From assembly GCA_047967505.1 (NCBI GenBank), contig CM106538.1: a DNA stretch of 64,000 nucleotides; one strand, given 5' to 3'. A model generated the notes under the pieces. The model was not told where the DNA came from and searched no databases. It worked only from the letters and a program-made list of their open reading frames with translations. The first letter of the stretch is position 1. Each line of letters starts with the position of its first letter. This DNA is from Dipteris shenzhenensis (lineage: Eukaryota). Below are positions 1,993 through 61,448 of the stretch, piece by piece. The translations under genes were made by a program, and so were the position numbers.

Positions 1993-2048
1993 ATATACAG
2001 GTATTTATAGTAATGTAACAACTATGTACAGCAGCAAAATTTATGCGG

Positions 2049-3500: not shown

Positions 3501-3885
3501 AACTGTACGGACGATGATGAGCTGTGCTGTATAGATACGGGCTGCACGGGGGGGAGTCTAACTGTACGGGAAGATCGAGCTGGTACGGAATCGTACAAAC
3601 GTACGGACGTCGTATGACGACCGTACAAATGTACGGACAAAAAACTGCACAGGGTTCCTAGCGAAAACAGGGATGCTGACAGAAGGCAGGCGAGCTGAAA
3701 CGGTACGGAGATGACAAAAGTGTACGGAGGCACAAAAAAAGGCTTCGGAAGAGAGAACGATGTCGACGCACACACGAAGAGTTTGAAACAGGATTACACA
3801 AGTTGCGCAGGGGTGAGCAGACTGAGCGTACGGTCTGTCCGTACTGACGTACGGTACCTGTACGGGCAGAAGGAGCTGTACGGAG
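3480..3885. promoter_or_regulatory. GTAC/CCGTAC motif cluster in the L1 5' UTR (SBP/SPL-type binding cores)
   Basis: 17 GTAC counted in about 405 bp, 14 of them as GTACGG/CCGTAC. Includes TCGTACAA (3591) and CCGTACAA (3621). Confidence 0.55.
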
Positions 3886-3916: not shown

Positions 3917-4605
3917 CTCTCTCTCACACACACACGAAATAATACACACACACACACACACACACAAACACACACATATATATATATGTATTTATATGTA
4001 TGTATACATATACATATATGTATTTACAGATATATATATATATGTATATATATGAATTTACATATGTAAATACATACATATATATATATAATATATGTAT
4101 TTACATATATATTTATTTATTTATTTATTTATTTATAATATGTATTTACATATGTAGATACATATATATATATATATATAATATGTATTTACATATGTAA
4201 ATACATATATATATATATATGTATGTATGTATGTACATATATATATATATATGTATTTATATTTATATTTATATATATATATATATATATTTATATACAT
4301 ACATACATACATACATATTTATTTATTTGTTTATTTATTTATTTATTTACATATATGTATGTATATATTTATATACATATATGTATGTATATATATGTTT
4401 GTATATATATATGTATGTATGTATACACACACACACACACATATATATATATGTATGTATTTACATACATACATACATACATATTTATATTTATATTATA
4501 CTTATGTTTGTATACATATATGTATGTACACACACACATATATGTGTGTGTGTGTGTGTATATACATACATACATACATATATGTATACAAACATATATA
4601 TATGT
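3917..4605. repeat. Compound microsatellite (CA/TA/TATG/TATT)
   Basis: Directly visible; the ORFs over it are artefacts. Confidence 0.97.
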
Positions 4606-5694
4606 AAGACTTTGTATAAATGGGTGCTCAAGTATGTGTGGGTGTGTGGATTTGTATGTGTGAGAGCATACTTTTATACTATGGTCTACACCCACTGTTA
4701 GGCGCTGATGACGTCAGTGGGGATGTCATAGTAGCTAGTCCCTGCTATGCGTGATGGAGTTTATGGTTTTCAATCTTATGAGTGACTCTTGTGAGATTGA
4801 AACTGCACTATGTTGTGTTTTTAGAGGATGAGTTTGGGAATGTTCCTGGATTCATCTAGGTATATGCTTCTGCCGTATTAGCGGACATGCAAATTTCACC
4901 TTGCGAAGTTTTCGTGCAAGTTGCGGCCTGCTGGTATTGCGATATTTCTTTCTATCTTAAATGGTGCGTTGCCCTATCAGCTAGTTTAGATTTAGATGCT
5001 CGTTTAGGAGAGACTAAAATGAAATCGTTTAGACTTCACAAGCAGTTGAAGCTTGAATGAAGAGATTTGTACTACTTTTTGATTAGCCTTCTCCTTTAGT
5101 GCTAGCCTTCATCATGGCTGAGTTTGTCCTTCACATCCGGAGTGCCGATAGAAACTCAGTATGAAGACTTTGTATAAATGGGTGCTCAAGTATGTGTGGG
5201 TGTGTGGATTTGTATGTGTGAGAACATACTTTTATACTATGGTCTACACCCACTGTTGGGCGCTGATGACGTCAGTGGGGATGTCATAGTAGCTAGTCCC
5301 TACTATGCATGATGGAGTTTATGGTTTTCAATCTTATGAGTGACTCTTGTGAGATTGAAACTGCACTATGTTGTGTTTTTAGAGGATGAGTTTGGGAATG
5401 TTCCTGGATTCATCTAGGTATAAATGGGTGCTCAAGTACGAAGACTTTGTATAAATGGGTGCTCAAGTATGTGTGGGTGTGTGGATTTGTATGTGTGAGA
5501 ACATACTTTTATACTATGGTCTACACCTACTGTTGGGCGCTGATGACGTCAGTGGGGATGTCATAGTAGCTAGTCCCTACTATGCATGATGGAGTTTATG
5601 GTTTTCAATCTTATGAGTGACTCTTGTGAGATTGAAACTGCACTATGTTGTGTTTTTAGAGGATGAGTTTGGGAATGTTCCTGGATTCATCTAG

Positions 5695-5695
<1 letters not shown>
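4606..5695. repeat. Partial tandem array R-U-R-R of a hairpin-rich dispersed element (R about 256 bp: 4606-4861, 5164-5419, 5441-5695; U 4862-5163)
   Basis: Near-identical R copies AAGACTTTGTATAAATGGG...TTCATCTAGGT. The same family recurs at 61449-63405 and a distant relative at about 56210-56340. Confidence 0.9.
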
Positions 5696-5741
<46 letters not shown>

Positions 5742-19949: not shown

Positions 19950-22900
19950 TGTTGAGAGATCATGCTCAACATCATGTGATCAAATGTGCATAGCACTAAC
20001 ACGTATAGAGTGCTATAAAGGAAAGGGTTAGATGCCCTAAACCTAATCCTAAATGGGTTTGTATATATTCTACATTTTCAACTAAATTAGTGTACAGTTA
20101 GTCATTTGTAGTGTGCTCTCTAGTTGTGCCCTCTCTCCTCATCTCCACTCTTCTCCTCTCCCCTCTTCATATTTTGTCATGGTATCCAAGCTTGGTTCAG
20201 CCTTTCGCTGAGGCACCATCCTTGTGAGAGATATTGAGTGATCGAGAGATCGAGAGATCAAGTGTTCTCTTCCATTGAGAGAACTTCCGCTTTATTGAGA
20301 GAGAAAATTTCTCACTTGAGAGGGAAATTTTCAGTCCATCCATTTCATGAGAGATTCATGAGTGATTTCTATTGAGTGTTCATTCAGATTTGAGAGCATC
20401 CTTTGACAGATTTTTGCTGAGAGGAAGAAGAGATTTCTGTTCATTGACAACTTTTTGTCATTTGCTTTCTTGAAGATTCTCTAAGAGAGATTTCTATATT
20501 GTGACAAAAGAGAGAGAGTCTTTAGAAAAAGAGTCTCCAAAGAGACCTTTCTATTCATGATAAAACATCTCTTCTTTAGCTAGCATGCTGGATCAAAGCA
20601 ACTGAGTGTTCTACAAATGGTTTCTTGGCTAGACCATAGAGCCAAAGCAACTAAAGGTTCTTCTTCAAACTATATGTCTACAGCTACCTAATCCTCACGA
20701 CAGCCGACAACCCCTCTAAGCCAACATATGACTCAGCCTACAAGGCAAGAACTCACAACAAATATCTACAACAACCATATGTGAAGCTGCACCTCGAGCA
20801 ACCCTGCCTCCACGAAGCTACGTCAAACATCTCCTCCAGACTGTAGCACCACAAGTCCAACAAATGCCTCCATAGCGCAGCTCTGGCAACCACCACCAAA
20901 GGGTGACCAATGACCACGACTACTTCTGCAACGTCTCCTTGTATCAGACGACTGCTCCTCCATGCTCCTTGCTCACACAACAAGGTGGCTCTAGCCTCCC
21001 ACCAGCCAATAGCACCTATAAGCTCCTACACAGCCATGGTTGACTTTTGGCGACTCCAACTTGACCACAAGGTAGCTCATGGTCGACTTCTGGCGATGCC
21101 AGAGGACTCTGATGGTCAACCCTCTCCAAACGAACACAACTCCCAGCCTCTAAGCTCCTACAATGATAGCGTGCAATGACCTCGACGGAATCCTAAGATT
21201 TTGTTAGAATCTTAGTAGATTCTGATCTCCACATAGTCGACACATGGAGGATACCATATCCTCAAAGTCACACCCCTTGGGTTTGGCCACCAACATGCCA
21301 TGTGGCACCTTATCATGTCACATTAGCATCTGGCACCTTGCATGCCACATCATCACTTGGCCATGTCACCCAACCATGTGGTAGATAAGCCACATCATCC
21401 CCACATGCCATGTCATCAAGCCACCTCATTAGTCTAGCCAGCAGTCTAGTCAACTACCACATCATCAGCCACATGGCACACACAGTGCCAACCAGGCACA
21501 ATAACCTCTCCACAGGCATAGTTTTCCCATAGCATGTGCACACAGCTACCACATCACCATTGTGCTTCATAGGCACACCTCTTTACAAGAACAATTTACA
21601 TGTGATCTTGACTGCCACATCACTGAGCACATTTTTCACCCTTTTTGCCCCTCCACCTAGATCGTCATGTCTCTTGATCCAGGAGGAATTTGGTGCAACT
21701 ATCACTCACTTTTGAGCCTCGCCAAAACAAATCCACTTCCTACATGCACATCAGCCTCTACATCGACGCATCTGACCCAGCGCATAAAAAGAATCAAAGA
21801 AAAAAAATTATTTGTTGTTCTTTCATCGATCAATGGTTGGTATACATCTAGATCAAAGTAGACTAGATCTAGAGGAGATGCTTTGAATTTCTCCAAGTTG
21901 CCAATCTAAGCCATGCCTAAAATTCCCAACTAGTTCCTACTCGGAGTCAGCCCCTATGCTCACATACGGTTTCACATCATCACATTACCTGAAACCTGAT
22001 GTTCATCAATTCAGTGAGAGCAAACTTTAGAGTGTTTAGAGGCATTGTCAATTGATCAGTGGGTAGATAGCACATGATTTGATTTCACACACGTGCCATC
22101 ACTGTAAAGCCTATTTGGCTATTTTCAAGGCATTGTGCACATCATTTTAGCCTTGTAAAGCCTCTTTGCTATTCCCTGCATCATTTGCCACAAGCCTTGT
22201 GATTCAGATCGGATTATATATATTGCAGTTCTATCCTCACTGATAGTTCAGATTTCACTTGTTGCCACAATCAGTGTTTTGCAGTTGATTCAGACATATA
22301 TTTTCACGACACTTTGAGTACATTTCTTGCACCATGTCTACAACTAGCAACCTCAATCTGGAGGCATCTGTTAAGCTAGACAACTTCAATTACGACACAT
22401 GGAAATACCGAATGGAGAGCATTCTTGTACTTCAAGACAAATGGGAGCATATCGATGGATCTACACCTAGACCATTGGACGGTCTAGCCAGCAGTAGCTC
22501 TACTCCACCTGTTGTCACAACACCAACAATGGGATCTCTAGCTACACTAGTAGTTTTTGCACCTATAATTGATCCTTCCATTGCCCAAGCATAGGCAGAA
22601 TGGGATAAGAAAGATAAGTATGCATATCTTTTGATCAAGCAGAATGTGCAAGATGTCATGCTAGGACAACTCAACACCATCAAGACATCAAAAGAAGCAT
22701 GGGATATGTTCATAGCTCTCTACGAGTCCAAGAGCACTTCCAGGATTCTCACACTGAGAAACCAAATCAACCAGAGTTTTCACAAAACAGTAGAGCAACG
22801 AAACCGTTCATGACTATGTACTCAGGATCAAAGACTATAACAATCAACTCGTAGCAGTAAGAGAGACTATGAATCCCACAGAAATGGTTCAAGTCATCCT

Positions 22901-24599
22901 GAATGGGGACTAGGAGAGGGATACAGGAATCTAGTCTAGAGTATTGCCATTCAATGGCAAATTTTGACACTGGAAGAACTTCAGTCAGTCTTACTTGGTG
23001 AAGAACTTTGCACAGCAATATGGTCAAGATTATGATGAGACTTATGCTCTAATAGCAAAGATGGATTCCATATGGTTTTTGATATCACTAGCGACACTCA
23101 GCAGATGCAATGTGTATCAGCTCGATGTCAAGATTGCATTTCTTAATGGTTACCTAGATGAGGAAGTCTACATGCAACAACCAGTAGGTTATGTTGAACC
23201 AAGAAAGGAGAATCAGGTTTGCCATCTTAAGAAAAGTCTCTACGGCTTAAAGCAAGCACCTAGAAGTTGGTATAGTAGAATCGACAAATATTTTGCTGAT
23301 CTGGGATACATGAAATCCAATGCAACAAATTATACTCTCTACTACAAAGTTTAAGGGGAAGACATTACTATTGCACTTTGTACATAGATGATCTGATTGT
23401 GACCAAAAGCAAGGATAGCTTCATCAGAAAGCTAAAACAAGACTTATTTGCAAAGTTCGACATGAAAGATATTGGACTTATGCACTATTGTCTTGGAATT
23501 GAGTTCTAGAAAGATTCAAACAGCACCTTCATGAGTCAACTCAAATATGTTGACAGTCTCCTGAAGAAGTTTCATATGGCAGATTGCAAGATTACATCCA
23601 CTTTCAGTTTGAAACTTACTAAAGATTCAAAAAATCCTACAGTCAATGACAGGTACTACAAGCAGCTCATCAGATCTCTTATATATCTGACTATCACACG
23701 GCTAGATATTTGTTATCAAGTAAGCTCACTTGCATAGTTTATGGCAAATCCAAAACAGTCTCATTGGAATGCAGCCAAAAGATTCTTGAGATACATCAGA
23801 GGTACAAGACAGTTTGGGATAGAATATAGAGGAAGTCATCCAAGGTTGCATGGATACTATGACAGTGACTATGTCGGAGATCATGAGACAAGGAGATCCA
23901 CACAAGGATATGCATTTTTCCTTGGTCAAGGTGCTATATCATGGTTGCCGAACAAAGAAATAGCCAACACTCACTACAGGTGCATGTGAGGCTATATGGC
24001 TCAAAAGACTATTGTCAGAAACAAATTACTTTGATGAATCAAAGCCAACAACAATATACTGTGATAATCAATCGGCTCCAGCATTGGCCAAGAATCTAGT
24101 ATATCACTCCAGGACAAAGCACATTGATGTCATAGATCACTTCATCAGAGAAAGAGGGTTATTTGGTGACATTACACTAAAGCATTGTGATAGCAAAGAG
24201 AATGTTGCAGACATATTTACCAAACCACTCGGTAAGGAGCTTTTTGAGAAACATCTACAAGCTCTTGGTTTGACATAGAGGAAGGACATTCCCATCAAAG
24301 GGGTGTGATGGAATGTAATGCTCAGTCCTTCTTCGATTCCCCAGAATCTTCATGATGTTGATCTTGAGGGAAGGTGTTGAGAGATCATGCTCAACATCAT
24401 GTGATCACATGTGCATAGCACTAACGTTTATAGAGTGCTATAAAGGAAAGGGTTAGATGCCCTAACCCTAAATGGGTTTGTATATATTCTCCATTTTCAA
24501 CTAAATCTAGTGTACAGTTAGTCATTTGTGGTGTGCTCTCTAGCTATGCCCTCTCTCCTCATCTCCACTCTTCTCCTCTCCCCTCTTCATATTTTGTCA
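19950..24599 (+). mobile_element. Ty1/Copia LTR retrotransposon with both LTRs, internally deleted (no integrase) and nested in the Gypsy-like element
   Basis: LTRs 19950-20179 and 24375-24599 (TG..CA); TSD GTGTT at 19945-19949 and 24600-24604; PBS TGGTATCCAAGC (tRNA-iMet type) at 20180; PPT GAGGGAAGG. Confidence 0.97.
22334..24278 (+). pseudogene. Copia gag joined by deletion to RT/RNase H
   Basis: gag KLDNFNYDTWKYRMESIL; RT QLDVKIAFLNGYLDEEVYM, LKKSLYGLKQAPRSW; RNase H IYCDNQSA..HSRTKHID..ADIFTKPL; several stops. Confidence 0.95.
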
Positions 24600-29375: not shown

Positions 29376-30159
29376 ATCTTGGGGGTCATTTAGTTGGTGA
29401 TTGTTGATAAGTATTTGGGATGTAAAGAATGGATTCCACCATGGCTCATTGCACCTCCCTCACTGATTATAAAGGTTGTAAGGGTGCCACATACAACTCA
29501 CACTGTGGAACACACTTCAAGAACTTCAATCCTTTGACTAGAACCCAAGTCGGTGATGTGGAATAGAACTCCCCCACAACAACATCGTGCCTCCTTGATC
29601 TTTCTTCATTCAAAATTGGTGTTGAAAGCTTAACTCATTAAGCTTCTCATAGCCATAGTTCTCCTAACTACCAAACTACTATGCATTCTGCTAGGTCTGC
29701 CTTCCACGATTTCATCTCCTGTAATCCATTAGTTAATAGAGAGGAGGAGTTATTTCCAGTCTTTGATAAGAGCATAGATGTCCTAGCACCTACTTGGGAG
29801 CCCGAGACAATTTTGAAGACCTCATCAAGTACATGCAAGACCACATCACGAGTTTTTGCATATCAACTTGATGAGTCTACAAAAAGATGGGTCCCAATTG
29901 ATTATTAAAAGTATTGTTCAATCAAGAACCCGAGTTCGTGAAGCATTTAGATCGCTTTCGAGCCCAGCCCACATCCCTAGGGTTTAGGGAGGTGGACACT
30001 GATGACCTCCTAGCATGCAGAGTCATCGAAAACACAAGAAATAGGTTCCTATCCTATGAAATTACCTTTATTTTCCTTCTCCAGGAGGGACAAATGGAAG
30101 AGGAGGCCTGACCTCAAGCCCTGACATTGCCCTTGACATTTTTGATCCTCTTATTTCTA

Positions 30160-31415
30160 TAGATGAACCCAACATCTACAATGAAGAGCCCATAGATAAA
30201 GAAGCTGAGGAGTGGGAAGCTATATTGGCCCTCTGTTGGCCCTGAAAGTGCTCCAGTGACCTCCTAAACCCCATTCTACTTCTCAAATTCCATCCACCTC
30301 GAGCACCACCTCTATTGACCATGCAACAGTGATATGGTTTCTTGCTCCCCTTCTTGTAGATGGAGAACAATAGCTCTTTCTCCATGACATCGAAGTTATG
30401 TTTGGTCTTTGGGAGGATGAAGCTCTTGATGTCCTGTGTGGATACGAGGTGGACACGACTATGCAAGAACCTAGGTTTTTGGGAGCAGATGATTTAATAG
30501 ACATCGAGGTTATGTTTGGTCTTTAGGAGGATGAAGCTCTTAGTGTCCTGTGTGGATACGAGGTGGACACGACTATGCAAGAACCTGGGTTTTTGGGAGG
30601 AGATGATTCAATAGAAGAGGTTCTTGCTTTAACACTGGCCAAAATCAAAGATGCAAAGACATTAATCTACTCTGACCTACCTGATGTTCCAGAAGAAGCC
30701 TCCACATCTCACTCCGGATAGCAGGAGGCCTCTGGATCCATCCTCATTGACAAAGAGGAAGGGATTGAGCATGATGACTCCATAGTGGTAAGAAACTATG
30801 AGCTTTGAATTTTTTCTCTCTTGGTATAATTTTTCTTTAACAGAATTCTAATGTAATGTTGGACTGTTGCAGGAGGCATTTGAGGTCAACCTGTTCTCAT
30901 CTCAGCAATGCCTTATTCACAGTAGCTTCGGCTGAGATCACTCACTGGCACATTACCTTGGCCAAGCAAAAGGGCGCTTTGTGTGGTTATCCATAAAAAG
31001 TTTTCTCCACATGGTACTGATGACCTCCTGAAGTGCAAGGCCTTGTCACAAGTGATTGGTCATGCTGACAAGGTCATTTTGGTGAACTGCATGGTTGCCC
31101 TGAATGCTTTTGGAACCAATTTTCAAGGTATGGCATTGACGGCAGCAGCCATGTCCCTCGCTAGTAGGACAATAGTGTTGACTCTCTATCAAATAGGTTT
31201 AGAGCTAGGAGTGTATTTGGGAATTCAAATCCCGATGTTCTCAGTGTTTTAGAGAAGAGAGAAAGGCTTTGGAGCCTTATTATATAGAACTTTTATTTTA
31301 TATGAATATAGATATACTTTTTATATAGTGTCCCATTTTGTGTTCTTTTATAAAATTTATTTTATACTGTCATTGTATTTTGTAACTTTAATTGTTGTTG
31401 GCATTAATATTTTCA
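30160..31415 (+). pseudogene. Spliced TE cargo gene 'A', 3' exons and 3' UTR (acidic exon, intron about 30788-30871, last exon); unknown function
   Basis: GTAAGA..TTGCAG intron conserved in the inverted copy at 32383-33505; internal duplication of about 115 bp at 30386-30614. Confidence 0.6.
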
Positions 31416-31498
31416 TTCACTATTCTGTTCAAAAGCATGTTATCAGATAAATTGTTGTGCTATAATGGTCATTTCGGAGCAATTTAGTAAGAATCTCA

Positions 31499-31810
31499 CC
31501 ATGGCACAGAAGGCAAATGTGTTCAACATCCTACGGGGAGCTCAAAAATGTCAAAACCCATTATGGGGTGTATGGAGCCTATTTGACTTGGCAAAAATGT
31601 CAAAATCCACTATGGGTGTATGGAGCCTGTTTGACCAAGTCAAATAGGCTCCATACATGCCATAGCAAGTTTTCACATTTTTCAGCTCCTCGCACAATGC
31701 CATATGGAGCCTATTTGACTTGGTCAAATAGGCTCCATATGCACCATAGTAGGTTTTGACATTTCTGAGCTCCCTGCACGATGCTGAACACATTTGCCTT
31801 CTGTGCCATG
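31499..31810. repeat. Palindromic (foldback/MITE-like) spacer with nested palindromes
   Basis: CATGGCACAGAAGGCAAATGTGTTCA...TGAACACATTTGCCTTCTGTGCCATG arms; internal TATGGAGCCTATTTGAC.nn.GTCAAATAGGCTCCATA palindromes. Confidence 0.92.
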
Positions 31811-31996
31811 ACAAAAAAACATCATTTGACCACTCAAATTCATAGTGAACTTGCATAAACTGATGGAAAGCATCATGTAACATGTATAATAACATGGGAA
31901 CATTAATAGAACATAAAAATATCTTTTATTCATTGGCCTCAAAGGGTAGAGATTTACAAAATGATTCAAATTACACCAAATGAACCTAAACAACAT

Positions 31997-32378
31997 CTAG
32001 CACCTAAGGGAGGGATCGGAGCAGATGCACCTGGCGAGTGCAAGGTCCTTGTCCATCACTATTACTCTTTTGGCATGGATAGCACATAAGTTTTGCATCT
32101 TCAAAAAGACCTATTGTCATCTGCTCCATTGCCTCTTGAATTGCTCCCATAGTGCCTAAAGTGAAATGCACATCATCCTTGTAATGCTATGCTATTTCAT
32201 GTACAACACATTGGAAGGGTGCATAGGGAATGAGATTGCCCACAGTGGTTTGGAACTTGCGGATCTCTTGAAGTGCCTTCACGCCTGAATTTTTGCACCT
32301 CTTAATCTTTAAGGGACCCTGCACTGTCCTCTGGACATGGCCCCATGGCCGCTTTGAAATTCTTTCACCTCTCCTCCC
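31997..32378 (-). pseudogene. Divergent histone H3-like gene (complete histone fold), 5'-truncated, one stop and one +1 frameshift
   Basis: [95 protein letters not shown], collinear with H3 alphaN-alpha3. Confidence 0.92.
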
Positions 32379-33514
32379 ATAAATGAAAATATTAATGCCA
32401 ACAACAATTAAAGTTACAGAATACAATGAAACTATAAAAGAAATTTTGTAAAAGAACACAAAATGGGACATTGTAGAAAAAGTATATCTGTATTCATATA
32501 AAATAAAAGTTTTGTATAATAAGGCTTCTCTCTTCTCTAAAACATTGAGAATATCAGGCTTTGAATTCCCAAATAGACTCCTAGCTCTAAACCTAGTCGA
32601 TAGAGCATCAATGCTATTGTCGTTGCTAGCTAGGGACATGGTTGTTGCCGTCGATGCCATACCTTAAAAATTGGTTCTAAAAGCATTGAGAGCAGCCATG
32701 TGATTCATGAAAATAACCTTGTCAGCATTCTGATTGATGTTGGCATGACAAATCACTCGTGACAAGGCTTGCACTTTAGGTGAAAACTTTTTGTGGATAA
32801 TCACAATGCACCCTTTTGCTTGGCCAAGGTAATGTGCAAGTGACTGATCTTGGCTGAAGCTATTGCGAACAAGGCATTGCTGAGATGAGAAGAGGTCGAC
32901 CTCAAATGCCTCCTGCAACAATCCAACATTACATTAGAATGCCGAAAAAGCAAAATTATACCAAGAGAGAAGAAATTTAAAGCTCATAGTTTCTTACCAC
33001 TATGGAGTCATCATGCTTGATTCCTTCCTCTTTGTCAATGAGGATGGATCTAGAGGCCTCCTACTGTTCAAAGTGAGATGTGGAGGCTTCTTCTGGCACA
33101 TTAGGTAGGTCATAGTAGATCAATTTGTCTGCATCTTTAATTCTGGTCAGTGTGAAAGCAAGAACCTCTTCTATAGAATCATCTGCTCCCAAAAACCCAA
33201 GTTCGTGCAGCATAGTCATGTCCATCTCGTATCCACACAAGACACTAAGAGCTCCGTCCTTCTAGAGACCAAACATAACCTCGATGTCATGGGTGGATAA
33301 AGAGATATTGTTCTCCATCAACAACAAGGGGAGAAAGAAACTATATCACTGTTGTGGTATCAGTAGAGGTGGTGCCCAAGGTAGATGGAATTTGAGAAGT
33401 AGAATGGGGTTCTAGAGGTCTTTGGAGCACTTCTGCCAATGTAGCTTCTCGCTCCTCGTCTTCTTTATTAATGGGCTCTTCATTGTAGATGTTGGGCTCA
33501 TCTGGAGAAACAAG

Positions 33515-35127
33515 TGTGAAAACATGCATGCCTGAGGATCTATGGAGCACTCTAAGGTGGATGGAACCTATGTGGAGACATGATGAAGAGAATGCTCATG
33601 ACATGTACCTCAAGTCAATTAGGTTCCAAGATAGATTATAGCTTGGACTCATAAACAGAATCTTGAGTGAATGTGCATTCCTCTATTGCAATGTGTTTTC
33701 AACAATACATGATAGGCCTCTTATATAGAGAGTGCCCTTTGAATAGTCAACACATGTGGGATCCTCTGATCCACATCTCTCCTTGTGGATATCCTCAATC
33801 CACATCTCCACATCGTGTAGTCCACATCCTAGGGTGGCTACTTTAATACATTCCTTATCACATACCTTAGCATCTAATTATGTGCTCAAGGCACTACAAC
33901 TCTCAACACCTCCCCGTGGTGCCATGATCCTTTGGCTACTGCAAGGTGGTCAGATGTGAGTTACATTCCATCACCTCCCCTTAGTGCATACATTGCTACT
34001 TAAGGTGGTAAAGTGTGGTTTTTACATGTCAATACCTCCCCTGGGTGCTTTCATAGCTACTCTCGTGCTGCCTTGCAGCTTCGTACTTAAGACCCAAGTG
34101 TTTGCTTATTGAATAGATCATCTCGTCAAATGCTAGACTGAGAACGTAGGCACATTGAAGGAGCGCTAAGGTCATAGAAGACGAATATAGTGGCTAGTTG
34201 CATTGCTTTGGATCACAGTGATGGAGTCATTGGAGGCAACTAAAAGGTGTATGGGATGCCTGTGGTCTTTGCTTCATCATCGCTGGTGTTGTGTGTAGTA
34301 CCTATGAAGCTCATTGCCTTGTAATCTTAATGCTTGGAGTGATTTTCAGTCATGCTGAGCCTTTGAGGGAGTCACCTTGCCTTTGCTTTAGGTTGTAGCT
34401 TGACTAGCCATCACTGGTTTGCTGCCGTTGGAGTCCATGTTGTTGTGTGACCTGGGTTGCCTCTTTTGCTATTAAAAGCTTTGGCTACTGACTATTTGCA
34501 TGGCTTCTTCTTCATTTTAAAGCTCTGATTTGATGCATTGATGCTGATTTTTCAAGAAGTGGAGGAGGGACTAGACTCAAAGAAACTTATAGAATTGTCT
34601 ATGAACTTTACAAGAATCTCTAATTAACTAACATAGGAGAAAACATGCGCTCCTAAGGCATGCCTACAACTAATCTAGGAGTCTAGACCTAAGCTCTGAT
34701 ATCATGTGAAAACATGCATGCCTCAGGATCTATGGAGCGCTCTAAGGTGGATGGAACCTATGTTGAGACATGATGAAGAGAATGCTCATGACATGTACCT
34801 CAAGTCAATTAGGTTCCAAGATAGATTAGCTTGGACTCATAAATAGAATCTTGAGTGAATGTGCATTCCTCTATTGCAATGTGTTTTCAACAATACATGA
34901 TAGGCCTCTTATATAGAGAGTGCCCTCTTTCTTGTTGTTTTTCTATCTTGTTTTGCTTTGAATAGTCAACACATGTGGGATCCTCTAATCCACATCTCTC
35001 CTTGTGGATATCCTCAATCCATATCTCCACATCATGTAGTCCACATCCTAGGGTGGCTACTTTAATACATTCCTTATCACATACCATAGCCTCTAACTAT
35101 GTGCTCATGGCACCATAACTCTCAACA
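33515..35127 (-). mobile_element. Non-autonomous LTR element (TRIM-like)
   Basis: LTRs 33515-33908 and 34705-35127; TSD ACAAG at 33510-33514 and 35128-35132; PBS TGATATCAGAGC (minus strand, 34693-34704); PPT GGGGAGG; about 800-bp interior without pol. Confidence 0.95.
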
Positions 35128-35693
35128 ACAAGAGGATGGGCAAGGGCAGGGACAGGGTAAGGAAAATAAAGGTCATTTCTTAGAATAGGAACCCAAGAAA
35201 TTCGTCAAGGGCATTCTCATGTAGGCACTTGCATGACCATATGGTTTTTGTTCTGTGCATCTCGATATTCTAAAAACAAGAATAAAAAATGTGCAGAGAC
35301 ATAACCTTACCCATTTAGAGCCAAATGTAAACTTCATGGCCATGCCCACATCCTTTGCAATCTTTTCCTTATCTAATTGCACTATTCTTGTGTCCACCGT
35401 GCTGCAAGCCATGTCTTCAAGTTGTGGTGTTGCAATGCATTGAAGATGTCCATAGCTTGATGCCATCCTTGAAGGAATGTACTAATAGATATTTCTCTGT
35501 TTCAAAGCAAAGGACTTCTCTCCAGCATGCATTTGCCTTCCTAAATCCTCATGAATGGCAGTAAACTTATGTAAGAAGCACTCCACTCCTCAAAGTCTGA
35601 AGGAAATATATATGCTATGTACAAGTGCTATTTCAAAATACAATTTCAAAATGACTCATTACACTTAGAAATCTTACACAAAATGCAGACTTA

Positions 35694-36345: not shown

Positions 36346-36824
36346 TAGAGAGGGAGAAAGATAGTGGACCAAAGCAAGAGGGGCAAGAGCAACTACCACC
36401 AAATGAGTTTCCACATTTGAAAAATAGAGGGAGAATGGATCTGGACCAGAGAAGAGGAGGGGGCAGAACTACAACAAGCTGAGAGGGGGGTAAAATTCAC
36501 CTAGAAGGACCCACTACATCTTCTTAAATGAGTTATAGGATTATCTCGAGGAGGTGCATATGGGAGGAGGGTCAAGCATGGGTTGAGGGGGGGGGGGGAT
36601 GGTTTGAGTGGTCCCCGGTGTAAGAGGAGTAGCTAACATTAGGGGAGAATTGAGGTCTCAAAAGAGCCTCATAAGGAATGGATTAGGGAATTCTTAGTGG
36701 GATAATGCAAGGGGCTTGGAGGGTCCCAAAGAGGCCTAACCAGCCCAACCTAGGTGGGTTAAGCCCACATTTGAGCCCACCTTTCCCCCCATCAATGAGA
36801 GGGGACCACTTTTTGAAATTTGAA

Positions 36825-37310
36825 TTTCTCCCTCTCTATCTCCCTCTCCCTCCCTCCCTCTCTCTCCATCCCCCTCCTCCCTCCCTCCTCCGTCCCTCCC
36901 TCCCTCCACCTCCTTCTCTCCTCCTCCCTCTCCCTCTCCCTCCCTCGCCCTCCCTCCTCGTCTCCCCTCCTCCATCTTGCTCCTCCTCCTCCCTCCTCCC
37001 TCTCCCCTCCTCCTTCTCCTTCTGGCTCCTCCTCCCTCCTTCCTCTCCCCTCCTTCCTCTCCCCTCCTTCTCCATCCACCCAGGCTCCCTCTCCTCTGCT
37101 CCTCCCTCCTGCAGAATCTCTCCCCTCCTCCTCCCTCCTGTAGCAACTCTCCCCTCCTCCTCCCTTCTGTAGCAACTCCTTCCCTCTCTTCTACACCTGT
37201 CGCCCTACTCTCCTCCTCTTCCTCTTGCCCTAATCTACTTCTCCTCCTCCCTCTTCCTTGCTACTCTCTCCCTCTCACTGCTCCATCTTTGCCAGCTCTC
37301 CCCTACATTT
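36825..37310. repeat. Polypyrimidine (CCT/CT) low-complexity tract upstream of the transposase-like ORF
   Basis: Almost entirely C/T; includes a repeat of about 29 bp at 37095-37180. Confidence 0.9.
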
Positions 37311-37345
37311 TAGTCTGCATCATTGATACCTTTCTTTGAGTACTT

Positions 37346-39657: not shown

Positions 39658-42600
39658 CTATAATCATTTGATAGAAAGATAATAAGAGACAGCTTTTAAT
39701 AGGAATTTAGCATCCAAATATATACATGATCAACAAAAATGGGCAAGAACTTTTTGCATGTTTTACTCTTGAAAATGGGTCTACAAATCTACTTTAATAT
39801 TTAAAAATAGAGGAATAATCTTGAACAAATGACATGTGATAACTATATGTGTACTTGATTATCATATTACAACCATAGGATTCAATAAGGATTTATTAAG
39901 TCTCAATAGCCATATTCTTATAACCATGCACTTGATTACAGCCATAGTGTTTCCATAGGGATTTCTTAAGTATCATGTGCAAAGATATCCTTATATTATA
40001 TTTTGTTTCAAGATATAGATCAATACATATTCATTGATTTATTAAGACATTTTTCACACATGATCGCTTTTCTTAGGAATCAAGGATAAATGCTCAACAT
40101 AGAGACATACACTAATTTACTTTTGTCAAAGGCAAATTCAAGTGTGTGTCAAACATAAGGATACATTTTTTAAAACATTTAAAATAGGGAAAATTTTGAT
40201 CAAAAGCAATTATAATTTCCCTTTTCTTTACCACAGGATCTCTTTGTTCCTTTATTTATCCAACTTTTTTTCTTTATTCAACTTTAATTATAATTGGTCT
40301 TTTCTTTACCTTAAGATCTCTTTATTCCTTTATTTATCCAACTTTAATTGAGCAAAATTTAGTTGATTATAACCATAGTGTTTCCATAGGGATTTGTTAA
40401 GTCTCATGTGCAAAGATATCCTGATATTTTTTTTTTTTCAAGATATAGATCAATACATATTCATTGATTCATTAACACATTTTTCACACATGATCGCTTT
40501 TCTTAGGAGTCAAGGATAAATGCTCAACATAGAGACATATGTTAATTTATTTTTTTCAAAGACAAATTCAAGTGTGTGTCAAATTTGCATAAGGATACAT
40601 TTTCAAACCATTTAAAATAGGGAAAATTTTGATCAAAAGCAGTTATAATTTCCCTTTTCTTTACCACAAGATCTCTTTGTTCCTTTATTTATCCAACTTT
40701 TTTTCTTAATTCAACTTTAATTATAATTGGTCTTTTCTTTACTACAAGATCTCTTTATTCCTTTATTTATCCAACTTTAATTGAGCAAAATTTAGTTACA
40801 ATCTTGGATTTTCATGAGTTAAGATGAGCGCTTGTATCTAAGTGATTATCGATAATGAGAATCCAATAAAATTTCATCAAAAAAAGAATTTTAAAATGGC
40901 TCAAATTACAAGGGCCTACTTTATGTATGGATAATTTTTCCCCTATTCCATGTATGGAATTTTTTTGGGTATTACATCTCATTACAAAATAGGTGGATAA
41001 ATATGCAAATACTTGACCCACATAATAGATGAAATGTATACTCCTTAAAGAATATTTCACTTCTTAAAATATAAGCTATTTGTAAATCTCATGTAAACAT
41101 AAGCTCAATCAAGTCTATATAGAATAATGATAATTTTTTAGAGCCAAGTTTTGCATAACTAGTCAATAAAAGGTGCTCTATGGGGAACATAATTTAAAGG
41201 AAAATAGTAGTGGATCCAAAGCTTTATAACACATAACCCTATTAAGGATTAATCTCCTCCTTTTCATATATGATAAAGCTATATTTTTGTGTGGCACAAA
41301 TGTCATTAATCATATGCTAGTGTATACATGTCAAATATGATGTACATGTTCCCCTCTACAAGCCCCTATTATAGCAAAATAAAAGTTCATGATTAATTTT
41401 CAAGGGTGGATTCATTAACGTCACAACTTTTTATGAGCTATGTTACATAAAAGGGAGATAAAAATGACTTGAGATAAAAATCATGAAATATATCCTAGAG
41501 TTTCAAGATTCTTAGTTCACCATGTCTAGCTTTGATGATAGATTATCATTCTCAAATTTAACACAAGCACTTTAGCCCCTTCATTACCTTTCAAGCTCTA
41601 CTCTCAAGTTTATGTGCAAGTGGGACTTAGAGACATAAGTGAAGAGGGGTACATTGAGAAACTAGTGAAATAGGGGAGAAGATGTAAGATAGAAAAAAGA
41701 AAGGGTTGAAGAGACCATGGAAGAGGAGATAAAGGGAGGGGGGGACAAATAGGCATTGGAGGTAATGCTAATATTACATCTAAGATTTTGCCTCCATAAA
41801 AGAATTTCCATTAAAGTGGAGATAGAATAAAGTAGCATTCTTAATTAGATATAGTGTATGATTTCTTTACTTTTATTTACATTAGTTCACCTATGACTTG
41901 TAATCAACCAAGCTTTCTATATCCCATCTTACAAATTATAGAAATTGGTCTCCTTGAAACATGCAATATTTCTAATGTGTAGAGAGTTAAATATCAAGCT
42001 TATGATACACATAGAAACTTGACCATGTCTATACTATAATAGGATTAGCATTATTCTAGTACATAAATATTCAACGGATGAAATTGACAAGTTGCTTCAC
42101 AATGTTTATTGTTGGCTAGATTGGGAACATAAATTATATGAGTAGATCCTAGAGAAAAAAGCTTGGAAAAGCTTTTAGATAATGATGATATTATTGATAG
42201 GGAAGAAACCATAAACAAATGATAATAGTTACATTCTAAACTATTACTTTTTAAATAAAGATGAAGATTAATATTACCCTTGTCATTTTTATCTCGTCTT
42301 CTTCAATACTTTCCTCTTCCTTGAAACCATATGCGAGTTGTCGTCGATAGCGCAATATCAAGATAACTATGTAGATGGTTACAATGAAACAACAGATCAA
42401 GCTAGCTGCAAGCTTTGCTCTTATGTCTGTGAGAAAGATAGTATCATATGGCTAGGAATGCAAACTCAATTTAACTTGGACATGTAAAGTATTTCTAGCC
42501 TATCATATCTATAGAACAATTAAATCTCATCATGAAAGCAATTATACCTGGAGGTACAGCCTCAAAAGTTAGATATATGTGTGCAATGCTCTCAAGTGGT

Positions 42601-47900: not shown

Positions 47901-50900
47901 AAGGGAAGCAGAAAAGGCAAAAAAGCTCCGCAAGGAATGCCGACTAAAGAGATCCATTAGGGATGGAGAGGAAAATATTGATATGACACAAGAGCCCTCC
48001 TTGAACAAAATCCTCCACCGTAGCCAAGCCAATGCACACAAAGCCCTGGACAGCAGCCGCTACAACCACCGTACCGCTCCAACATCTATCAGCAAGCTCT
48101 AGAATTTTGTACCTCTAGCTCATACCAAACTACTAAGGGCTACAATAAATTAATGCTTGAAGACAATCAGACCACACAAAAGGAACTTGCTTTTCTAGAG
48201 TCCATTACGACCATGATAGTAGCTGCACAAAACATCCTAGCAAGGAGGCAGCAGTTTTCAATCCTCGAAAAACATTGTAGCAGTCAGGGCTAGCCTCAAG
48301 CTCTAGGAATCAGAAAAATTATTGCTATAGAAAGAGCAGCAAAGCAATTGGTCATGGAAGCCAGTGGATTAAAGGCCATAGAAATTAACAAACAACTTGA
48401 ACTAGGGTTGCAACAAACATAGGAGGCCTTGGCTATATAGCACTTGTGCAATGATACCATTCAGGATGACTATGACACTCTACAATGCCAAGCAACTAAG
48501 CTCATCGATGCAGGATTCATATAAGAGATAGTACACACATACTCCCATAGTCATTGTGCTAAAGAAGAAAGGCAAGATTAGAGTACGTGTTGATCTCATA
48601 AAAGGTAAATGTTTCCACTTATAAGGACCAGTATCCACCACTACCATTCATAGAGCATGCATTAGAGAGAGTCGCAAGAAAAGAAGCCTACAACTTTCTT
48701 GATGGATTCTTTGGATATAGCCAGGTATCCATAGCTCCAATGGATCAACTAAAATGGCATTTTCCATGGAATGGGGATTCTATGCTTCCTGAGTGATGTT
48801 TTTTGGGTTCATTAATGCTCCCACGACATTTCAAAGGCTGATGATCATTTCAATTGCCACAATCAGTGTAGTTGATTCAGACCGTGATTTTCACGACACT
48901 TTGAGTACATTTCTTGCACCATGTCTATGACTAGCAATCTCAATCTAGAGGCATCTGCTAAGCTAGACAACTCCAATTATGGCACATGGAAATACCGAAT
49001 GGAGACCATTCTTGTACTTCAGGACAAATGGGAGTATGTCGATGAATCTACACCTAGATCATTATATGACTTAGCCAGTAGTAGCTCTACTCCACCTGTT
49101 GTCATAGCAACAGTAGCAGGATCTTCAGCTACACCAACAGTTTTCGCAGGTGTAGCAGATCCTTCAATTGCCCGAGCACAGGCAGAATGGGATAAGAAAG
49201 ACAAAGTGTGCATATCATCTGATCAAGCAGAATGTGCAAGATGTCATACTAGTACATCTTAACATAATCAAGACATCAAAAGCATCAATTTCAAAAGCTT
49301 GATAGAGCTCAAGAACTACAATATGGCAATTATGATCCCTAAGCTACAGTTTCTTGGAAAAGTTTGTGAAGCATGCTGCTTTGGCAAACAAAAGAGAACC
49401 AATTTCGACAGAAGCACCTCTCGAGCACGACGTAATCTTGATTTGATTCATATAGACGTATGGGGTTATGCCCAGACCTATAGCATCAATGGTACATGAC
49501 TTCCATCGATGACTACAACAAATATTGTTGGGTCTACTTTCTGAAAGAGAAATTTGAAGTGCTTTCCATATTTCATGAATTCAAAGCCATGGCAGAAAAC
49601 CAGATAGGCAGAAAGATCAAAGTCATGAGATTAGATAGACGAGGTGAATACATGTCTTCAGTATTCATGAACTTTTGCAAAAGTCATGGCATTCGAAGAC
49701 AATTCACTTGTGCAGATACTCCTCAGTTGAATGCAAGAGCTAGAAGGAAGAATGGTACTTTAGCAAAGAGTGCTGGAGCAATGCTTAGTGAGAAGCATCT
49801 TCCGAATCAGTATTGGGTAGAAGCAATAGCCACTGTAAACTACTGGCTTAATCGACTTCCTACAAAACCGATTCAGGATATGACACCTTATGAAGCATTC
49901 ACTCGACAGAAGCCACACATTGGGCATCTCCGCATATCTGGTTGCATAGCATATGCCCACATACATGACGACCATCGCAGGAAATTGGATGCAAAGTCAC
50001 GCAAATGCATCATGGTTGGCTATAGTGAAGACAGCACACCGCAAGGTCATTATCTCTGGAGATGTAATCTTTGATGAGGAATCAAAATGGAAAACCTCAA
50101 ATACAAAGGAGATAGACACACCAATTACTCAGTCATCTACAGAAAAGATTGATGAAGAAGAGCAAGAATTGCCAGAAGCACCCCCAAAAGAACCACATCA
50201 ACTTAAACGATCTACTAGGGAAAGCAGACCTCCAGCCAGATTGACATATGCTGAGAAATGCAAAGCAATTCAGGTTGAAACCACCAGCTATGCTCTTGTG
50301 ACTACCATCATGGCTACAGAAGGACCAGTGTACTTTGAAGATGCAGTTGACAAGCCAAAATGGCAAACTGCTATGAATGACGAAATGGATGCTTTGTACA
50401 AGAATAATACTTGGAAATTATGCAACCTTCCACTAGGAAAGAAGGCCAAAGCAAACAAATGGATATACAAAGTGAAGTACAATCCAAATGGAAGCATTGA
50501 AAGATACAAAGCCAGACTAGTTGCAAAAGGATTTGCACAACAATATGGTCGGGATTATGATGAGACTTATGCTCCAGTAGCAAAGATGGATTCCATACGG
50601 TTCTTGAAATCACTAGCGACACTCAGTAGATGGACTGTGTACCATGGACTGTGTACCAGCTCGATGTCAAGAATGCATTTCTCAATGGTTACCTAGACGA
50701 GGAAGTGTACATGCAATAACCAGCATGTTATGTTGAACCAGGAAAGGAGATTCAGGTTTGCCATCTCAAACATGCAAAAGTGCAATAGTGATGTCTTCCC
50801 CTTGAACTTTGTAGTAGAGAGTATGATTTGCATTGGATTTCATGTATCCCAGATTAGCAAAATACTTGTTGATGCTGGTGTACCAACTTCTGGGTGCTTC

Positions 50901-53900
50901 CAGAACTCAATTCTAAGACAAATTCCAAGACAATAGTGCTTAAGTCCAAGATCTTTCATGTCGAACTCTGCCAGATAAGTCTTGTTTTAATTTCTTGATG
51001 AAGATATCCTTGCTTCCTATCACAATCAAATCATCTACATACAAAAGTGCAATAGTGATGTCTTTCCCTTGAACTTTGTAGTAAAGAGTATGATCTACAT
51101 TGGATTTCATGTATCCCAGCTCAACAAAATACTTGTTGATGCTGGTGTACCAACTTCTGGGTGTTTCCAAATCTCAATTCCAAGACAATAGTGCTTAAGT
51201 CCAAGATCTTTCATGTCGAACTCTGCCAGATAAGTCTTGTGTTAATTTCTTGATGAAGATATCCTTGCTTCCTATCACAATCAGATCATCTACGTACAAA
51301 AGTGCAATAGTGATGTCTTCCCCTTAAACTTTGTAGTAGAGAGTATGATCTGCATTGGATTTCATGTATCCCAAATCAGGAAAACACTTGTCGATGCTGG
51401 TGTACCAACTTCTGGGTGCTTGCTTTAAGCCATATAGACTTTTGAAGCAAGGATATCTTCATCAAGAAATTGAAACAAGACTTATCTACAGAGTTCAAGA
51501 TGAAAGATCTTGGACTTAAGCACTATTGTCTTGGAATTGAGTTTTGGAGAGATCCAGACAACACCTTTATGAGAGTCAGCTCAAATATGTTGGCAGTCTC
51601 TTGAAGAAGTTTCATATGGCAGAATGCAGGATTGTAGCCACTCCCATGGAACAAAGTTTGAAACTTACTAAAGATTTTGAAAAGCCTATAGTCAATGACA
51701 AGTACTATAGGCAACTCATCGGATCTCTTATATATATGACTATTACATGGCCAGATATTTGTTATGCAGTAAGTTCACTTGCACAATTTATGGCAAATCC
51801 AAAACAGACTCACTAGAATGCAGCCAAAAGAGTCTTGAGATATATTAGAGGTACAAGACAGTTTGGGATAGAATATAGAGTAAGTCATCCAAGGTTCCAT
51901 GGATACTGTGACAGTGACTATGCCGAAGATCATGAGACGAGGGGATCGACACATGAATATGCATTTTTCCTTGGTCAAGGTGCTATATTATGGTTGTCAA
52001 ATAAATAGCCAACTATTTCTTTGTTTTCAACTGAACCAGAATATAGAGCACTCACTACTTATGCATGTGAGGCTATATGGCTCAGAAGACTATTGTCAGA
52101 AACAGATTACTTTGATGAATCAAAGCCAACAACAATATATTATGATAATCAATCGGCTCAAGCATTGGCCAAGAATCCAGTATATCACTCCAAGATAAAG
52201 CACATTGATGTCAAAGAGCACTTCATCAAAGAAAGAGTGTTACTTGGTGACATTACACTGCAACATTGTGATAGCAAAGAGAATGTTGCAAACATCTTTA
52301 CCAAACCACTTGGTAAAGAGCTTTTCGAGAAACACCGACAAGCTCTTGGTTTGACTCAGAGGAAGGACATTCCCATTAAAGGGGTGTGATGGAATGTAAT
52401 GGTTAGTCCTTCTTCGATTTCCCAGAATCATCATCTTGAGGGAAGGCCTACTTCATGATGTTGATCTTGAGGGAAGGTGTTGAGAGACCACACTCAACAT
52501 CATGTGATTACATGTGCATTGCACTAACACATATAGAGTGCTATAAAGGAAAGAGTTAGATGCCTTAACCCTAACTCTAATTGGGTTTGTATATATTCTA
52601 CATTTTCAACTAAATCTAGTGTACAGTTAGTCATTTGTGGTGTGCTCTCTAGCTATGCCCTCTCTCCTCATCTCCACTCTTCTCCTCTCCCCTCTTCCTA
52701 TTTTGTCAAGCCCCACAGTAGAAAAGGCCTTCGACTCTTTTTTTTACAGATAAGAAATTTCATATGAAAAGGGGATACTATTCTTGTAACTTTTTCAATA
52801 GCCAAAAAACTCTCACAATTGGTGGAGAGGTTTTCTTGATTCATCCAAAAGGAGAAAGCTCCAAAATTGACAAAAAATATTGTCCAAAAGTCTTCAGGTA
52901 TCCCTATTTTACAATTTTAGTTAGTGATGTAGCTTTTCAATTTATATAAATTAAGTGGAAGAGGCCTCATTCAGGGCCACATTTGGCACCTCACTAGCAT
53001 TCTTTTCAAAAAGGAAAAATAATTTTTACCCTTAACTTGAAATCCATATCCATTTGGAGTAAAACTCCCTCTTCATGGCTTACCCTTCAAATTGCAGAAT
53101 TGAATAAATTGTGTGAGTATTGAGATTCACAAACTATTTGAGTACGTACAATAACATTCTTGGAATTTGCATTATCTATAATGGCTATATGTAGATAGGT
53201 AGATAAACATTAAAGATACATGAAGTGTGGCAATATGCATGAAATTATATCATCTATAGTGGGGGTTTAATATTAATAATTATATTTTTAATATTTAAGT
53301 TATACAAGAAAGGTATTGATACTAGCTTTGATAGCCTTATTGTGTCTACTAGCTTGGAGTTACCCCATGAAATACACATTAGTAGGAAATCAATGGGACA
53401 CACACAATTTATCTTCTCATTCCAAAAATTTCCATAGTTCCTAGTAAGGGATATATTTTTTATACTATTGTTACTTTTGGAACATCATTGATAAAGGTTT
53501 TTCACCATATTGTAATATGTATCCATAAGAAAATTCCCTTGTTCTATTATTTTCTCCCCTCCTTGTGCTATCATCCAAATAAGTTTGAGGCATAATGCTT
53601 AGAATTATATTTAAATGTTAAATGACTTTCTACTTAATAATCTAAGACAATAGAGTCATTTATACTATAAGAGAACTAGCACAATACCTTGATTGTCATA
53701 TTGGTCAGGATCTCCAATTGTAAACCCTTCTAGAGGGATCTCATTATGTGTCTTCCAATAACTATCATTAAAATATAATTGTGTCGATCCATTGATAAAC
53801 GGACGGTCATTCTTCGCTTGTAGCATTACTAAGATAGTCTTGATATCACCCTCCAATTTTCGATTATAGAGTTTAAGCTTGATGAAGTCATTTCCATTAA

Positions 53901-60870: not shown

Positions 60871-61448
60871 ACTGGAGAAAGTTGTTTGTTGTAATAACAT
60901 TACAATTCAGTTTACTGTGTTTTCTCTGAGTATTTACAGAAGTTGAATGCGTGTTATGAACTCCCTATCCAAAGGCACATATTTTGCTCTGGTTTTTCTA
61001 CAAAAATGACCAATATGTTGCAACATTACGACCATCATTCTTACAGAAAAAGATGCTTATGAATTTGTATTTTTCACTAATTTTCAAACACTTTGCAGGA
61101 TTAGGATTTTTGCTCTGTGCTGCCGTTATTAGCAAGCTAGGGTCTTATTTTTCCATACTAGATCAAAAACGTTCTCCATCTATTGAATCCTTATTTCTAT
61201 GAATTCTTACAGGCTATAATATCATTGTGATATGGTTACATTATTTTTTGAAACTAGATTTTGTCTTAGTTCTTTGGATTCATTTGGTAACTGCAACATC
61301 TTCAGGACAGCTATAGTATGGCACCAACCGAATATTATTTTATTCTTGATAATATCCTTTTGGAATGTGCTCCACCATTATTGGTGATGCTCTTTGTTTA
61401 GCTCAGTTGGGTCCTCTGCCCTGATTGTTCAAGTTGCTCTTGTGTTCT

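Follow-up and report, generated by a model that had tools for sequence, protein, structure and literature searches.

A decayed histone H3-like fragment, probably derived from an unannotated variant family, inside a non-autonomous inverted-repeat DNA transposon

A histone H3-like pseudogene lies between the inverted-repeat arms of a DNA transposon in the window, by which we mean the whole stretch of 64,000 nucleotides that was analysed. The H3-like sequence is single in the 64-kb window, where no second copy was found, and it is read on the minus strand without gap from position 32378 down to 31997-31999. The transposon that surrounds it (30044-35193) is likewise present once in the window and measures 5.15 kb, or about 3.5 kb without a nested insert. 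The features of the locus are, from left to right:

30035-30043: left target-site duplication, CAAGAAAT(A), with the 8 bp at 30035-30042
30044-31417, plus strand: left inverted-repeat arm, holding a 114-bp tandem duplication at 30386-30615
31418-31499: short spacer of unique sequence that separates the left arm from the palindromic insert, dissimilar to the right arm and lacking poly(A)/poly(T) runs
31500-31810 (311 bp): MITE-like palindromic insert with internal 84-bp repeats and hairpins
31811-31996 (186 bp), minus strand: 3' flank of the H3-like frame, with AATAAA at 31930-31925 and no poly(A) tract
31997-32380, minus strand: H3-like pseudogene, with an out-of-frame ATG at 32380-32378 and the natural stop TAG at 31997-31999
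32382-33514, minus strand: inner part of the right inverted-repeat arm, adjoining the ATG of the H3-like frame
33515-35127, minus strand: non-autonomous, TRIM-like LTR element nested in the right arm, with no ORF of at least 150 aa
35128-35193, minus strand: outer end of the right arm, with the nested LTR element between it and the inner part
35194-35202: right target-site duplication, CAAGAAAT(T), with the 8 bp at 35194-35201

The pseudogene retains a recognizable histone fold interrupted by a stop codon and a frameshift. Both breaks had been reported in a preliminary description made from the letters of the window, and both are recovered: an in-frame TAG lies at 32187-32189 (cta on the plus strand), and one surplus A within an AAAA run (TTTT on the plus strand, 32091-32094) shifts the following frame by +1. 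P0002, the 127-residue read-through of the window copy with X set at both breaks, matches the Pfam Histone family PF00125 with an E-value of 4.6e-22 and a score of 79 bits (cut-off 26.4). The best PDB matches are H3.3 and H3.1 (E ~1e-23; 2.4e-23 for H3.3), and the solved H3.3 aligns gap-free and residue for residue with query positions 30-118 of P0002. The fold is one uninterrupted block without an intron, and it has the helix N and the CAIHAKRV segment typical of H3. P0002 contains IPYAPF, FQCVV, HF at H3 R83-F84, FEDA where H3 has FEDT, and a C-terminal end SDPSLRC. The residues highlighted earlier (IPYAPF, FEDA for FEDT, and F84) are all found here, as is the H3-like length of loop 1, which shows no gap against H3; Q68 and F84 are also H3-like.

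The 5' end of the histone-like block is damaged and incomplete. The ATG at 32380-32378 shares its frame with the C-terminal third of the block and not with the middle, which indicates that a second frame-changing indel, a short 5' deletion near 32345-32355, is probably present in the window copy. Directly after this ATG the window frame gives K-E-F-Q, at the place where relatives of the window copy give K-K-F-K just before KRPW. Similarity to these relatives, which are described below and are known only from ENA, begins at 32375-32380, where the inverted-repeat arm ends (inner edge at 32382, two bases from the ATG), and the tail of the window copy is therefore cut short. The right arm has no similarity to the N-terminal extension of the ENA relatives, and tblastn searches of the whole 64-kb window with the extensions of P0140, P0114 and P0113 returned nothing below an E-value of 0.085 outside the locus. 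A K27-type ARKS motif is not found in the visible part of the tail, as stated in the preliminary description, and that visible part belongs to a truncated tail. On the 3' side, the read-through ORF of one relative, P0116, aligns weakly past the stop and into the 3' flank. Compensating frameshifts behind the divergent loop-1 block were considered and rejected, the other two frames being unlike the ENA family.

An open frame for a full protein is absent at the locus (TAG, +1 frameshift, out-of-frame ATG). Given the stop, the one or two frameshifts and the 5' truncation at the transposon arm, the window copy is a dead, 5'-truncated passenger and the locus itself is not a working variant. Judging from its reading frame, the locus would make no histone now.

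The carrier has very long arms and belongs to the non-autonomous terminal-inverted-repeat DNA transposons. The inverted copies at 30150-31417 and 33514-32382 are 81-84% identical, the arms extend over 1.2-1.4 kb, and the outermost 35 nucleotides (30044-30078 versus 35193-35159) are 91% identical. When the nested element is removed by coordinates, both termini align. The target-site duplication is identical at 8/8 positions on both sides, while the ninth base differs (A versus T, 8/9). A terminal 33-mer occurs at only two places in the window, the ends of the element, with 0 occurrences expected in shuffles. The aligned termini, the presence of CAAGAAAT on both sides and the restriction of the terminal 33-mer to the ends together delimit the transposon unit. 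A transposable-element context had been noted before, and the inverted arms and 8-bp duplication give it stronger evidence than was stated at the time. Apart from the H3-like block, no ORF of at least 150 aa is found in 30044-35193, no Pfam family was detected in the read-through frames of either arm at E <=0.01, and there is no transposase or other transposable-element domain fused with or adjacent to the H3-like block.

The length of the target-site duplication bears on the class of the element. Counted as 8 bp it points to hAT, and counted as 9 bp with one mismatch it points to Mutator, for which duplications of 9-11 bp are typical. The terminal motif (GGTTCC...) was matched to neither hAT-type nor Mutator-type ends, and neither a Mutator-type terminal motif nor a related autonomous element was identified for this transposon. 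At 1.2-1.4 kb the arms far exceed the usual ends of Pack-MULE or hAT elements, and as an alternative they may represent an inverted duplication inside a shorter-ended element.

Two further elements, the LTR element at 33515-35127 and the palindromic insert at 31500-31810, arrived after the transposon had formed. The LTRs of the nested element, located at 33515-33908 (~394 bp) and 34705-35127 (~423 bp), are 89% identical, show the TG...CA termini and enclose ~800 bp of internal sequence, giving an element of 1.6 kb in all. It is flanked by a 5-bp target-site duplication, ACAAG, at 33510-33514 and 35128-35132, and a stretch adjoining the 34705 LTR on the minus strand resembles a primer-binding site. 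The palindromic insert ends in 88-nt inverted repeats (31500-31587 versus 31723-31810, 89% identity) and contains internal 37-nt near-perfect hairpins, TATGGAGCC...GGCTCCATA. No clear target-site duplication was found around this insert.

The rest of the window is rich in repeats and remains of retroelements. A LINE-type retroelement on the minus strand (1239-3793) contains an endonuclease/exonuclease/phosphatase ORF at 1390-2004 and a 387-aa ORF at 2394-3557 encoding DUF4283 and a CCHC zinc knuckle. Of the eight matches to the intact LINE ORF, only three are named, all proteins of Adiantum nelumboides with 43-48% identity; they give a hint, short of an identification, that the host is probably a fern or a fern relative. 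Copia-type remains are present at 48854-52708 and 22262-24599, with integrase core, SH3-like and RVT_2 domains at 49484-50696. Between these two regions ~2.3 kb is repeated with 84-87% identity, partly rearranged, and a 231-bp piece recurs at 19950-20179. Near-identical tandem copies (98-99%) of a 277-bp unit occupy 4601-5696, adjoined by an (AT)n-rich array at 3976-4603, with a further copy (89-92%) at 61448-61703. A 433-bp tandem duplication (93%) at 39932-40797 lies in an AT-rich stretch (GC ~0.29-0.35 across 38-46 kb). Finally, a GC-rich patch (0.50) at 36687-37339 gives overlapping ORFs of 161-174 aa on both strands, which derive from a CT-rich (CTCCCT-like) low-complexity repeat and in which no Pfam family was found.

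Sequence comparison places the window copy in an H3-like family that is distinct from canonical H3. When P0002 served as query in a word-seeded search of 5.8 billion proteins, the best matches were three ENA-only proteins (56-62% identity), and the first named matches were plant CENH3-type proteins at ~50% (Rhynchospora, Tasmannia, Actinidia, Rhododendron and Anthurium). A search with the family alignment yielded eight matches above 140 bits, all of them ENA-only and unnamed, with the next match at 128 bits. A ninth ENA member, P0140, is 96% identical and cut short, scoring 116 bits. With clusters read out, the family consists of 31 distinct ENA proteins, none of which has an NCBI or UniRef name. 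The ENA assemblies also hold relatives of the window LINE and thus plausibly contain related plant DNA.

The ENA proteins differ in how much of the histone they cover. The region from helix N to the C-terminal end is spanned by 17 of the 31, at 76-98% identity to P0113, while four lack the C-terminal end (three frameshifted, one running out earlier) and ten have an internal Met start. The KRPW tail is present in 11/31, three reach upstream to an EVLTFQ stretch, and only P0140 extends to a KQTARKS stretch, which corresponds to a K4/K9-type context. A second ARKS is found in none of the 31. The ENA ORFs possess a long divergent tail of ~125 residues before helix N and reach ~95 residues farther upstream than the window copy. 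Changes of R>C/H, frameshifts and lost starts are seen among these copies as well.

A full HMMER pass over 1.84 billion representatives, using a profile built from database members only, identified P0003 as the only family-level single-domain representative (303 bits). Single-domain matches then drop to ~137 bits and consist of unnamed proteins and of divergent H3s from mites, a tardigrade, a springtail and a nematode. In the atlas, P0003 falls in only generic H3/CSE4 clusters. Ten multi-stretch matches listed at the top (P0228-P0237) were examined as candidate fused family members and rejected, as they are gene models that fuse canonical H3 copies. In them, pieces of H4, H2A or H1 are joined to two or three copies of canonical H3; by whole-protein HMMER score such models outrank true relatives, and they may mislead searches for fused forms. 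Further multi-stretch rows were taken to be artefacts of this kind, and the search offered no evidence of a fused family member. When metagenome contigs were scanned with P0113, the best 80 of 209 relatives were all at or below 57% identity and represented ordinary eukaryotic H3, with no family member among them. A scan of viral contigs returned no relative and gave no support for a viral origin.

Phylogenetic analysis agrees with this assignment. A maximum-likelihood tree of 41 rows unites the window copy with the ENA family (98/98). Angiosperm CENH3, itself a clade at 98/94, fungal CenH3 and canonical H3 all fall outside this group; the backbone lacks resolution and the window branch is long (1.44). 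The ENA variants form at least two subfamilies (98/94). Across 107 aligned columns, 23 positions unite the window copy and the ENA member against H3, and 11 unite the window copy and H3 against the ENA member. Identity to H3 over the same columns is 53/107 for P0113 and 47/107 for the window copy. A C-terminal SDP(A/S)LR(H/C) extension and the KRPW motif are common to the window copy and the family and absent from H3.

The window copy carries the marks of cytosine deamination, which account for part of its divergence. The observed/expected ratio of CpG is 0.24 in the CDS and 0.31 over the whole window, and TpG (1.48) and CpA (1.35) are in excess in the CDS, which fits the deamination that the preliminary description had assumed. 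Comparison of the window copy with the ENA family consensus over 125 columns gave 68 identical and 57 different positions. Undoing C>T/G>A is the only way to reverse 17 of the 57 differences, the opposite direction, used as control, is the only way for 5, and the remaining 35/57 are reversed by neither transition direction, in line with the earlier statement that many substitutions go beyond deamination. Among these 17 deamination-type changes are four Arg>Cys and two Arg>His, the Gln codon that became the TAG, and the Tyr of IPYAPF. This Tyr is encoded by TAT where the family consensus has Arg, a change accounted for by double CpG deamination, and the same Tyr is found in one ENA copy, P0384. 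This residue, which had appeared CENH3-like, is thus a product of deamination. Decay of the window copy would mainly have proceeded by methyl-cytosine deamination, producing CAG>TAG, several Arg>Cys/His/Tyr and Thr>Ile, with the 1-nt insertion and the probable 5' deletion adding to the damage.

The divergence from the family is unevenly distributed along the fold. Identity is 6/20 at H3 positions 70-90 and 47/66 over the rest of positions 44-131 (Fisher p 0.0014, with the block chosen post hoc). We take positions 70-90 to comprise the end of helix 1, loop 1 and the start of helix 2. This pattern fits change while the gene was still under selection and is no proof of it. The parent family looks, from these comparisons, like a real H3 variant, and a variant lineage with past constraint on the fold is plausible. 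By analogy with H3, intact members would presumably pair with H4. The preliminary description had proposed a distinct variant evolving under constraint; this is plausible for the lineage and does not hold for the locus, with its stop, one or two frameshifts and 5' truncation.

The ENA family consensus combines CENH3-like and H3-like traits. CENH3-like are LIP.A.F, RW in loop 1, FEDAN, VTLM, ALQEI and the long divergent tail, and the CENH3-like residues of the family sit in helix N, helix 1 and helix 2. H3-like are the KQTARKS tail, for which P0140 is the only ORF that reaches far enough, and the length of loop 1. A loop 1 longer than that of H3 is generally taken as a defining trait of CENH3/CENP-A; neither the window copy nor the ENA consensus has a gap against H3 in this loop, and P0003 alone has one additional residue. 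The mixture of H3 and CENH3 features seen in the preliminary description is present in the family consensus, and part of it in the window copy, such as the Y of IPYAPF discussed above, is a deamination artefact.

These traits raise the possibility, which we regard as real and still doubtful, that the parent is the lineage's own centromeric histone CENH3 and that the window copy and the ENA sequences are its retrocopies or pseudogenes. The named best matches of the window copy are plant CENH3-type proteins, and the family resembles plant CENH3 (Actinidia, Rhododendron and Anthurium HTR12; P0023, P0038 and P0044) in LIP.A.F after helix N, FEDA(N), VTLM and ALQEI, with the ENA relatives also sharing RW in loop 1 and a long divergent N-terminal tail. 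The intronless fold is what a retrocopy would have. In approximately unbiased (AU) tests, the tree constrained to join the family with plant CENH3, in a set holding no fern CENH3, gained 6.4 log-likelihood units over the free tree (p-AU 0.695). Joining the family with canonical H3 was likewise not rejected (p-AU 0.402), at 2.5 log-likelihood units below the free tree, and the free tree itself sets the angiosperm CENH3 clade apart from the family. Further differences from plant CENH3 are a loop 1 no longer than that of H3, the C-terminal end SDPALRH, the KQTARKS of P0140, the absence of introns and the multi-copy state. CENH3 is described as usually single-copy (PMC7738545), and a set of 31 different ENA variants falling into two or more subfamilies would be unusual for it. 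In addition, the single-domain matches nearest to the family are not plant proteins; they are divergent H3s from mites, tardigrades, springtails and nematodes.

The family is also set apart from known atypical H3 variants of plants. The sperm-specific or K27-lacking H3 variants of Arabidopsis differ from H3.3 at only a few residues of the fold. The window copy resembles such variants in that it is a diverged H3 in which a K27 ARKS context is not seen; unlike them, the ENA family is only ~50% identical to H3 over the 107 columns. For ferns, the account in PMC5809374 reports only H3.1 and H3.3.

Taken as a whole, the relic is likely an intronless, 5'-truncated copy from an unannotated H3-variant family, carried as a passenger by a non-autonomous terminal-inverted-repeat transposon in the manner of Pack-MULE or hAT transduplication. 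The element would have acquired the fragment, probably from a transcript-derived or intronless parent, and the captured H3-like fragment would then have moved with the element. The H3-like piece could instead have entered a pre-existing element later.

The closest precedent for this locus, by analogy, is the capture of H3 by a fungal hAT element. In Pseudocercospora fijiensis, a hAT element with 20-bp ends and an 8-bp duplication is described as having caught an intronless H3 and as present in hundreds of copies, all inactivated by RIP (PMC6710886, Dhillon et al. 2019). As in the Dothideomycete hAT-H3 described there, an intronless H3 copy lies inside a transposon with terminal inverted repeats and an 8-bp duplication, and the inactivation is of C>T type, so that the histone can be recognized only once these transitions are taken into account (PMC6710886). 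The two systems differ in that the fungal element is described as autonomous and ~9.5 kb long, with a hAT transposase domain and 20-bp ends, whereas the element reported here has no transposase and arms of 1.2-1.4 kb (PMC6710886). They also differ in cargo, which in the fungal account is the host canonical H3 subjected to RIP and here is a member of a divergent variant family, with decay fitting methyl-CpG deamination in a plant-type genome (PMC6710886).

Plant Pack-MULEs, of which ~3000 are given for rice (PMC5861414), offer a second comparison. Like Pack-MULEs, the element is non-autonomous with long inverted ends and a short target-site duplication, and it carries a host-gene fragment placed 5'-end-first against one end. 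Unlike in Pack-MULEs, the duplication is perfect over 8 bp (9 bp with a mismatch) and the captured piece is without introns. In the literature we found no account of the ENA-only H3-like family or of a transposon-carried H3 in plants, although supplementary tables might list H3-like sequences of ferns.

An unlikely origin of the fragment is a processed pseudogene of an H3-type mRNA that was made by LINE machinery and landed amid an older foldback element. The copy is intronless and 5'-truncated, and LINE sequences with endonuclease and DUF4283/zinc-knuckle ORFs are present in the window at 1.2-3.6 kb. Against such an origin, the sequence beside the H3-like block (31418-31996 and 32381) contains neither a poly(A) tract nor a target-site duplication, and the 3' side passes into the palindromic insert and then into unique sequence. 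The 5' end, moreover, falls within 2 nt of where arm similarity stops, a coincidence that insertion at random leaves unexplained.

We consider it improbable that the DNA transposon family bears a functional histone, for example one that alters chromatin at insertion sites or escapes K27-type silencing, with the window holding a decayed member. The gene does lie between the arms with its 5' end against one of them, the ENA family is multi-copy with 17/31 proteins spanning helix N to the C-terminal end, and no named cellular gene is found in the family. Compared with the ENA ORFs, which reach ~95 residues farther upstream, the window copy is cut short, and this resembles a capture accident more than a designed cargo; no transposase or transposable-element domain is fused or adjacent. 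The R>C/H changes, frameshifts and lost starts of the ENA copies are typical of neutral decay.

Neutral decay of a canonical H3.1 or H3.3 can practically be dismissed: the best PDB matches are H3.3 and H3.1, gap-free over the fold, and loop-1 length, Q68 and F84 are H3-like, but the window copy forms a 98/98 clade with the ENA family, shares with it 23 derived positions (versus 11 shared with H3), including the SDP.LR. extension absent from H3, and differs from the family consensus by deamination-type changes at just 17/57 positions, so that the rejection of a decayed canonical H3 in the preliminary description stands, also in view of the 35/57 differences that neither transition direction reverses and of their clustering along the fold.

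The locus itself is debris, and its value lies in revealing an H3-like family that has no named protein entry in the searched collections. The CENH3-like and H3-like traits are mixed in the family consensus and are not merely artefacts of decay, and the locus provides a plant-side parallel to the transposon capture of histone H3 in fungi. Should such elements be numerous in the host genome, their histone-fold sequences could confuse the annotation of CENH3 and H3 variants in large fern genomes. The signature residues and the transposon termini provide a handle for finding the parent gene, be it CENH3 or a new variant. A wider reading, for which we see a small chance, is that an undescribed H3/CENH3-like family, probably of ferns, has been amplified by DNA transposons, with some copies perhaps retaining whole frames, the KQTARKS tail, no K27 context and the C-terminal extension. 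If such copies were expressed, they would represent not debris but a transposon-spread histone variant with a chromatin role of its own, for example in the germline or at centromeres.
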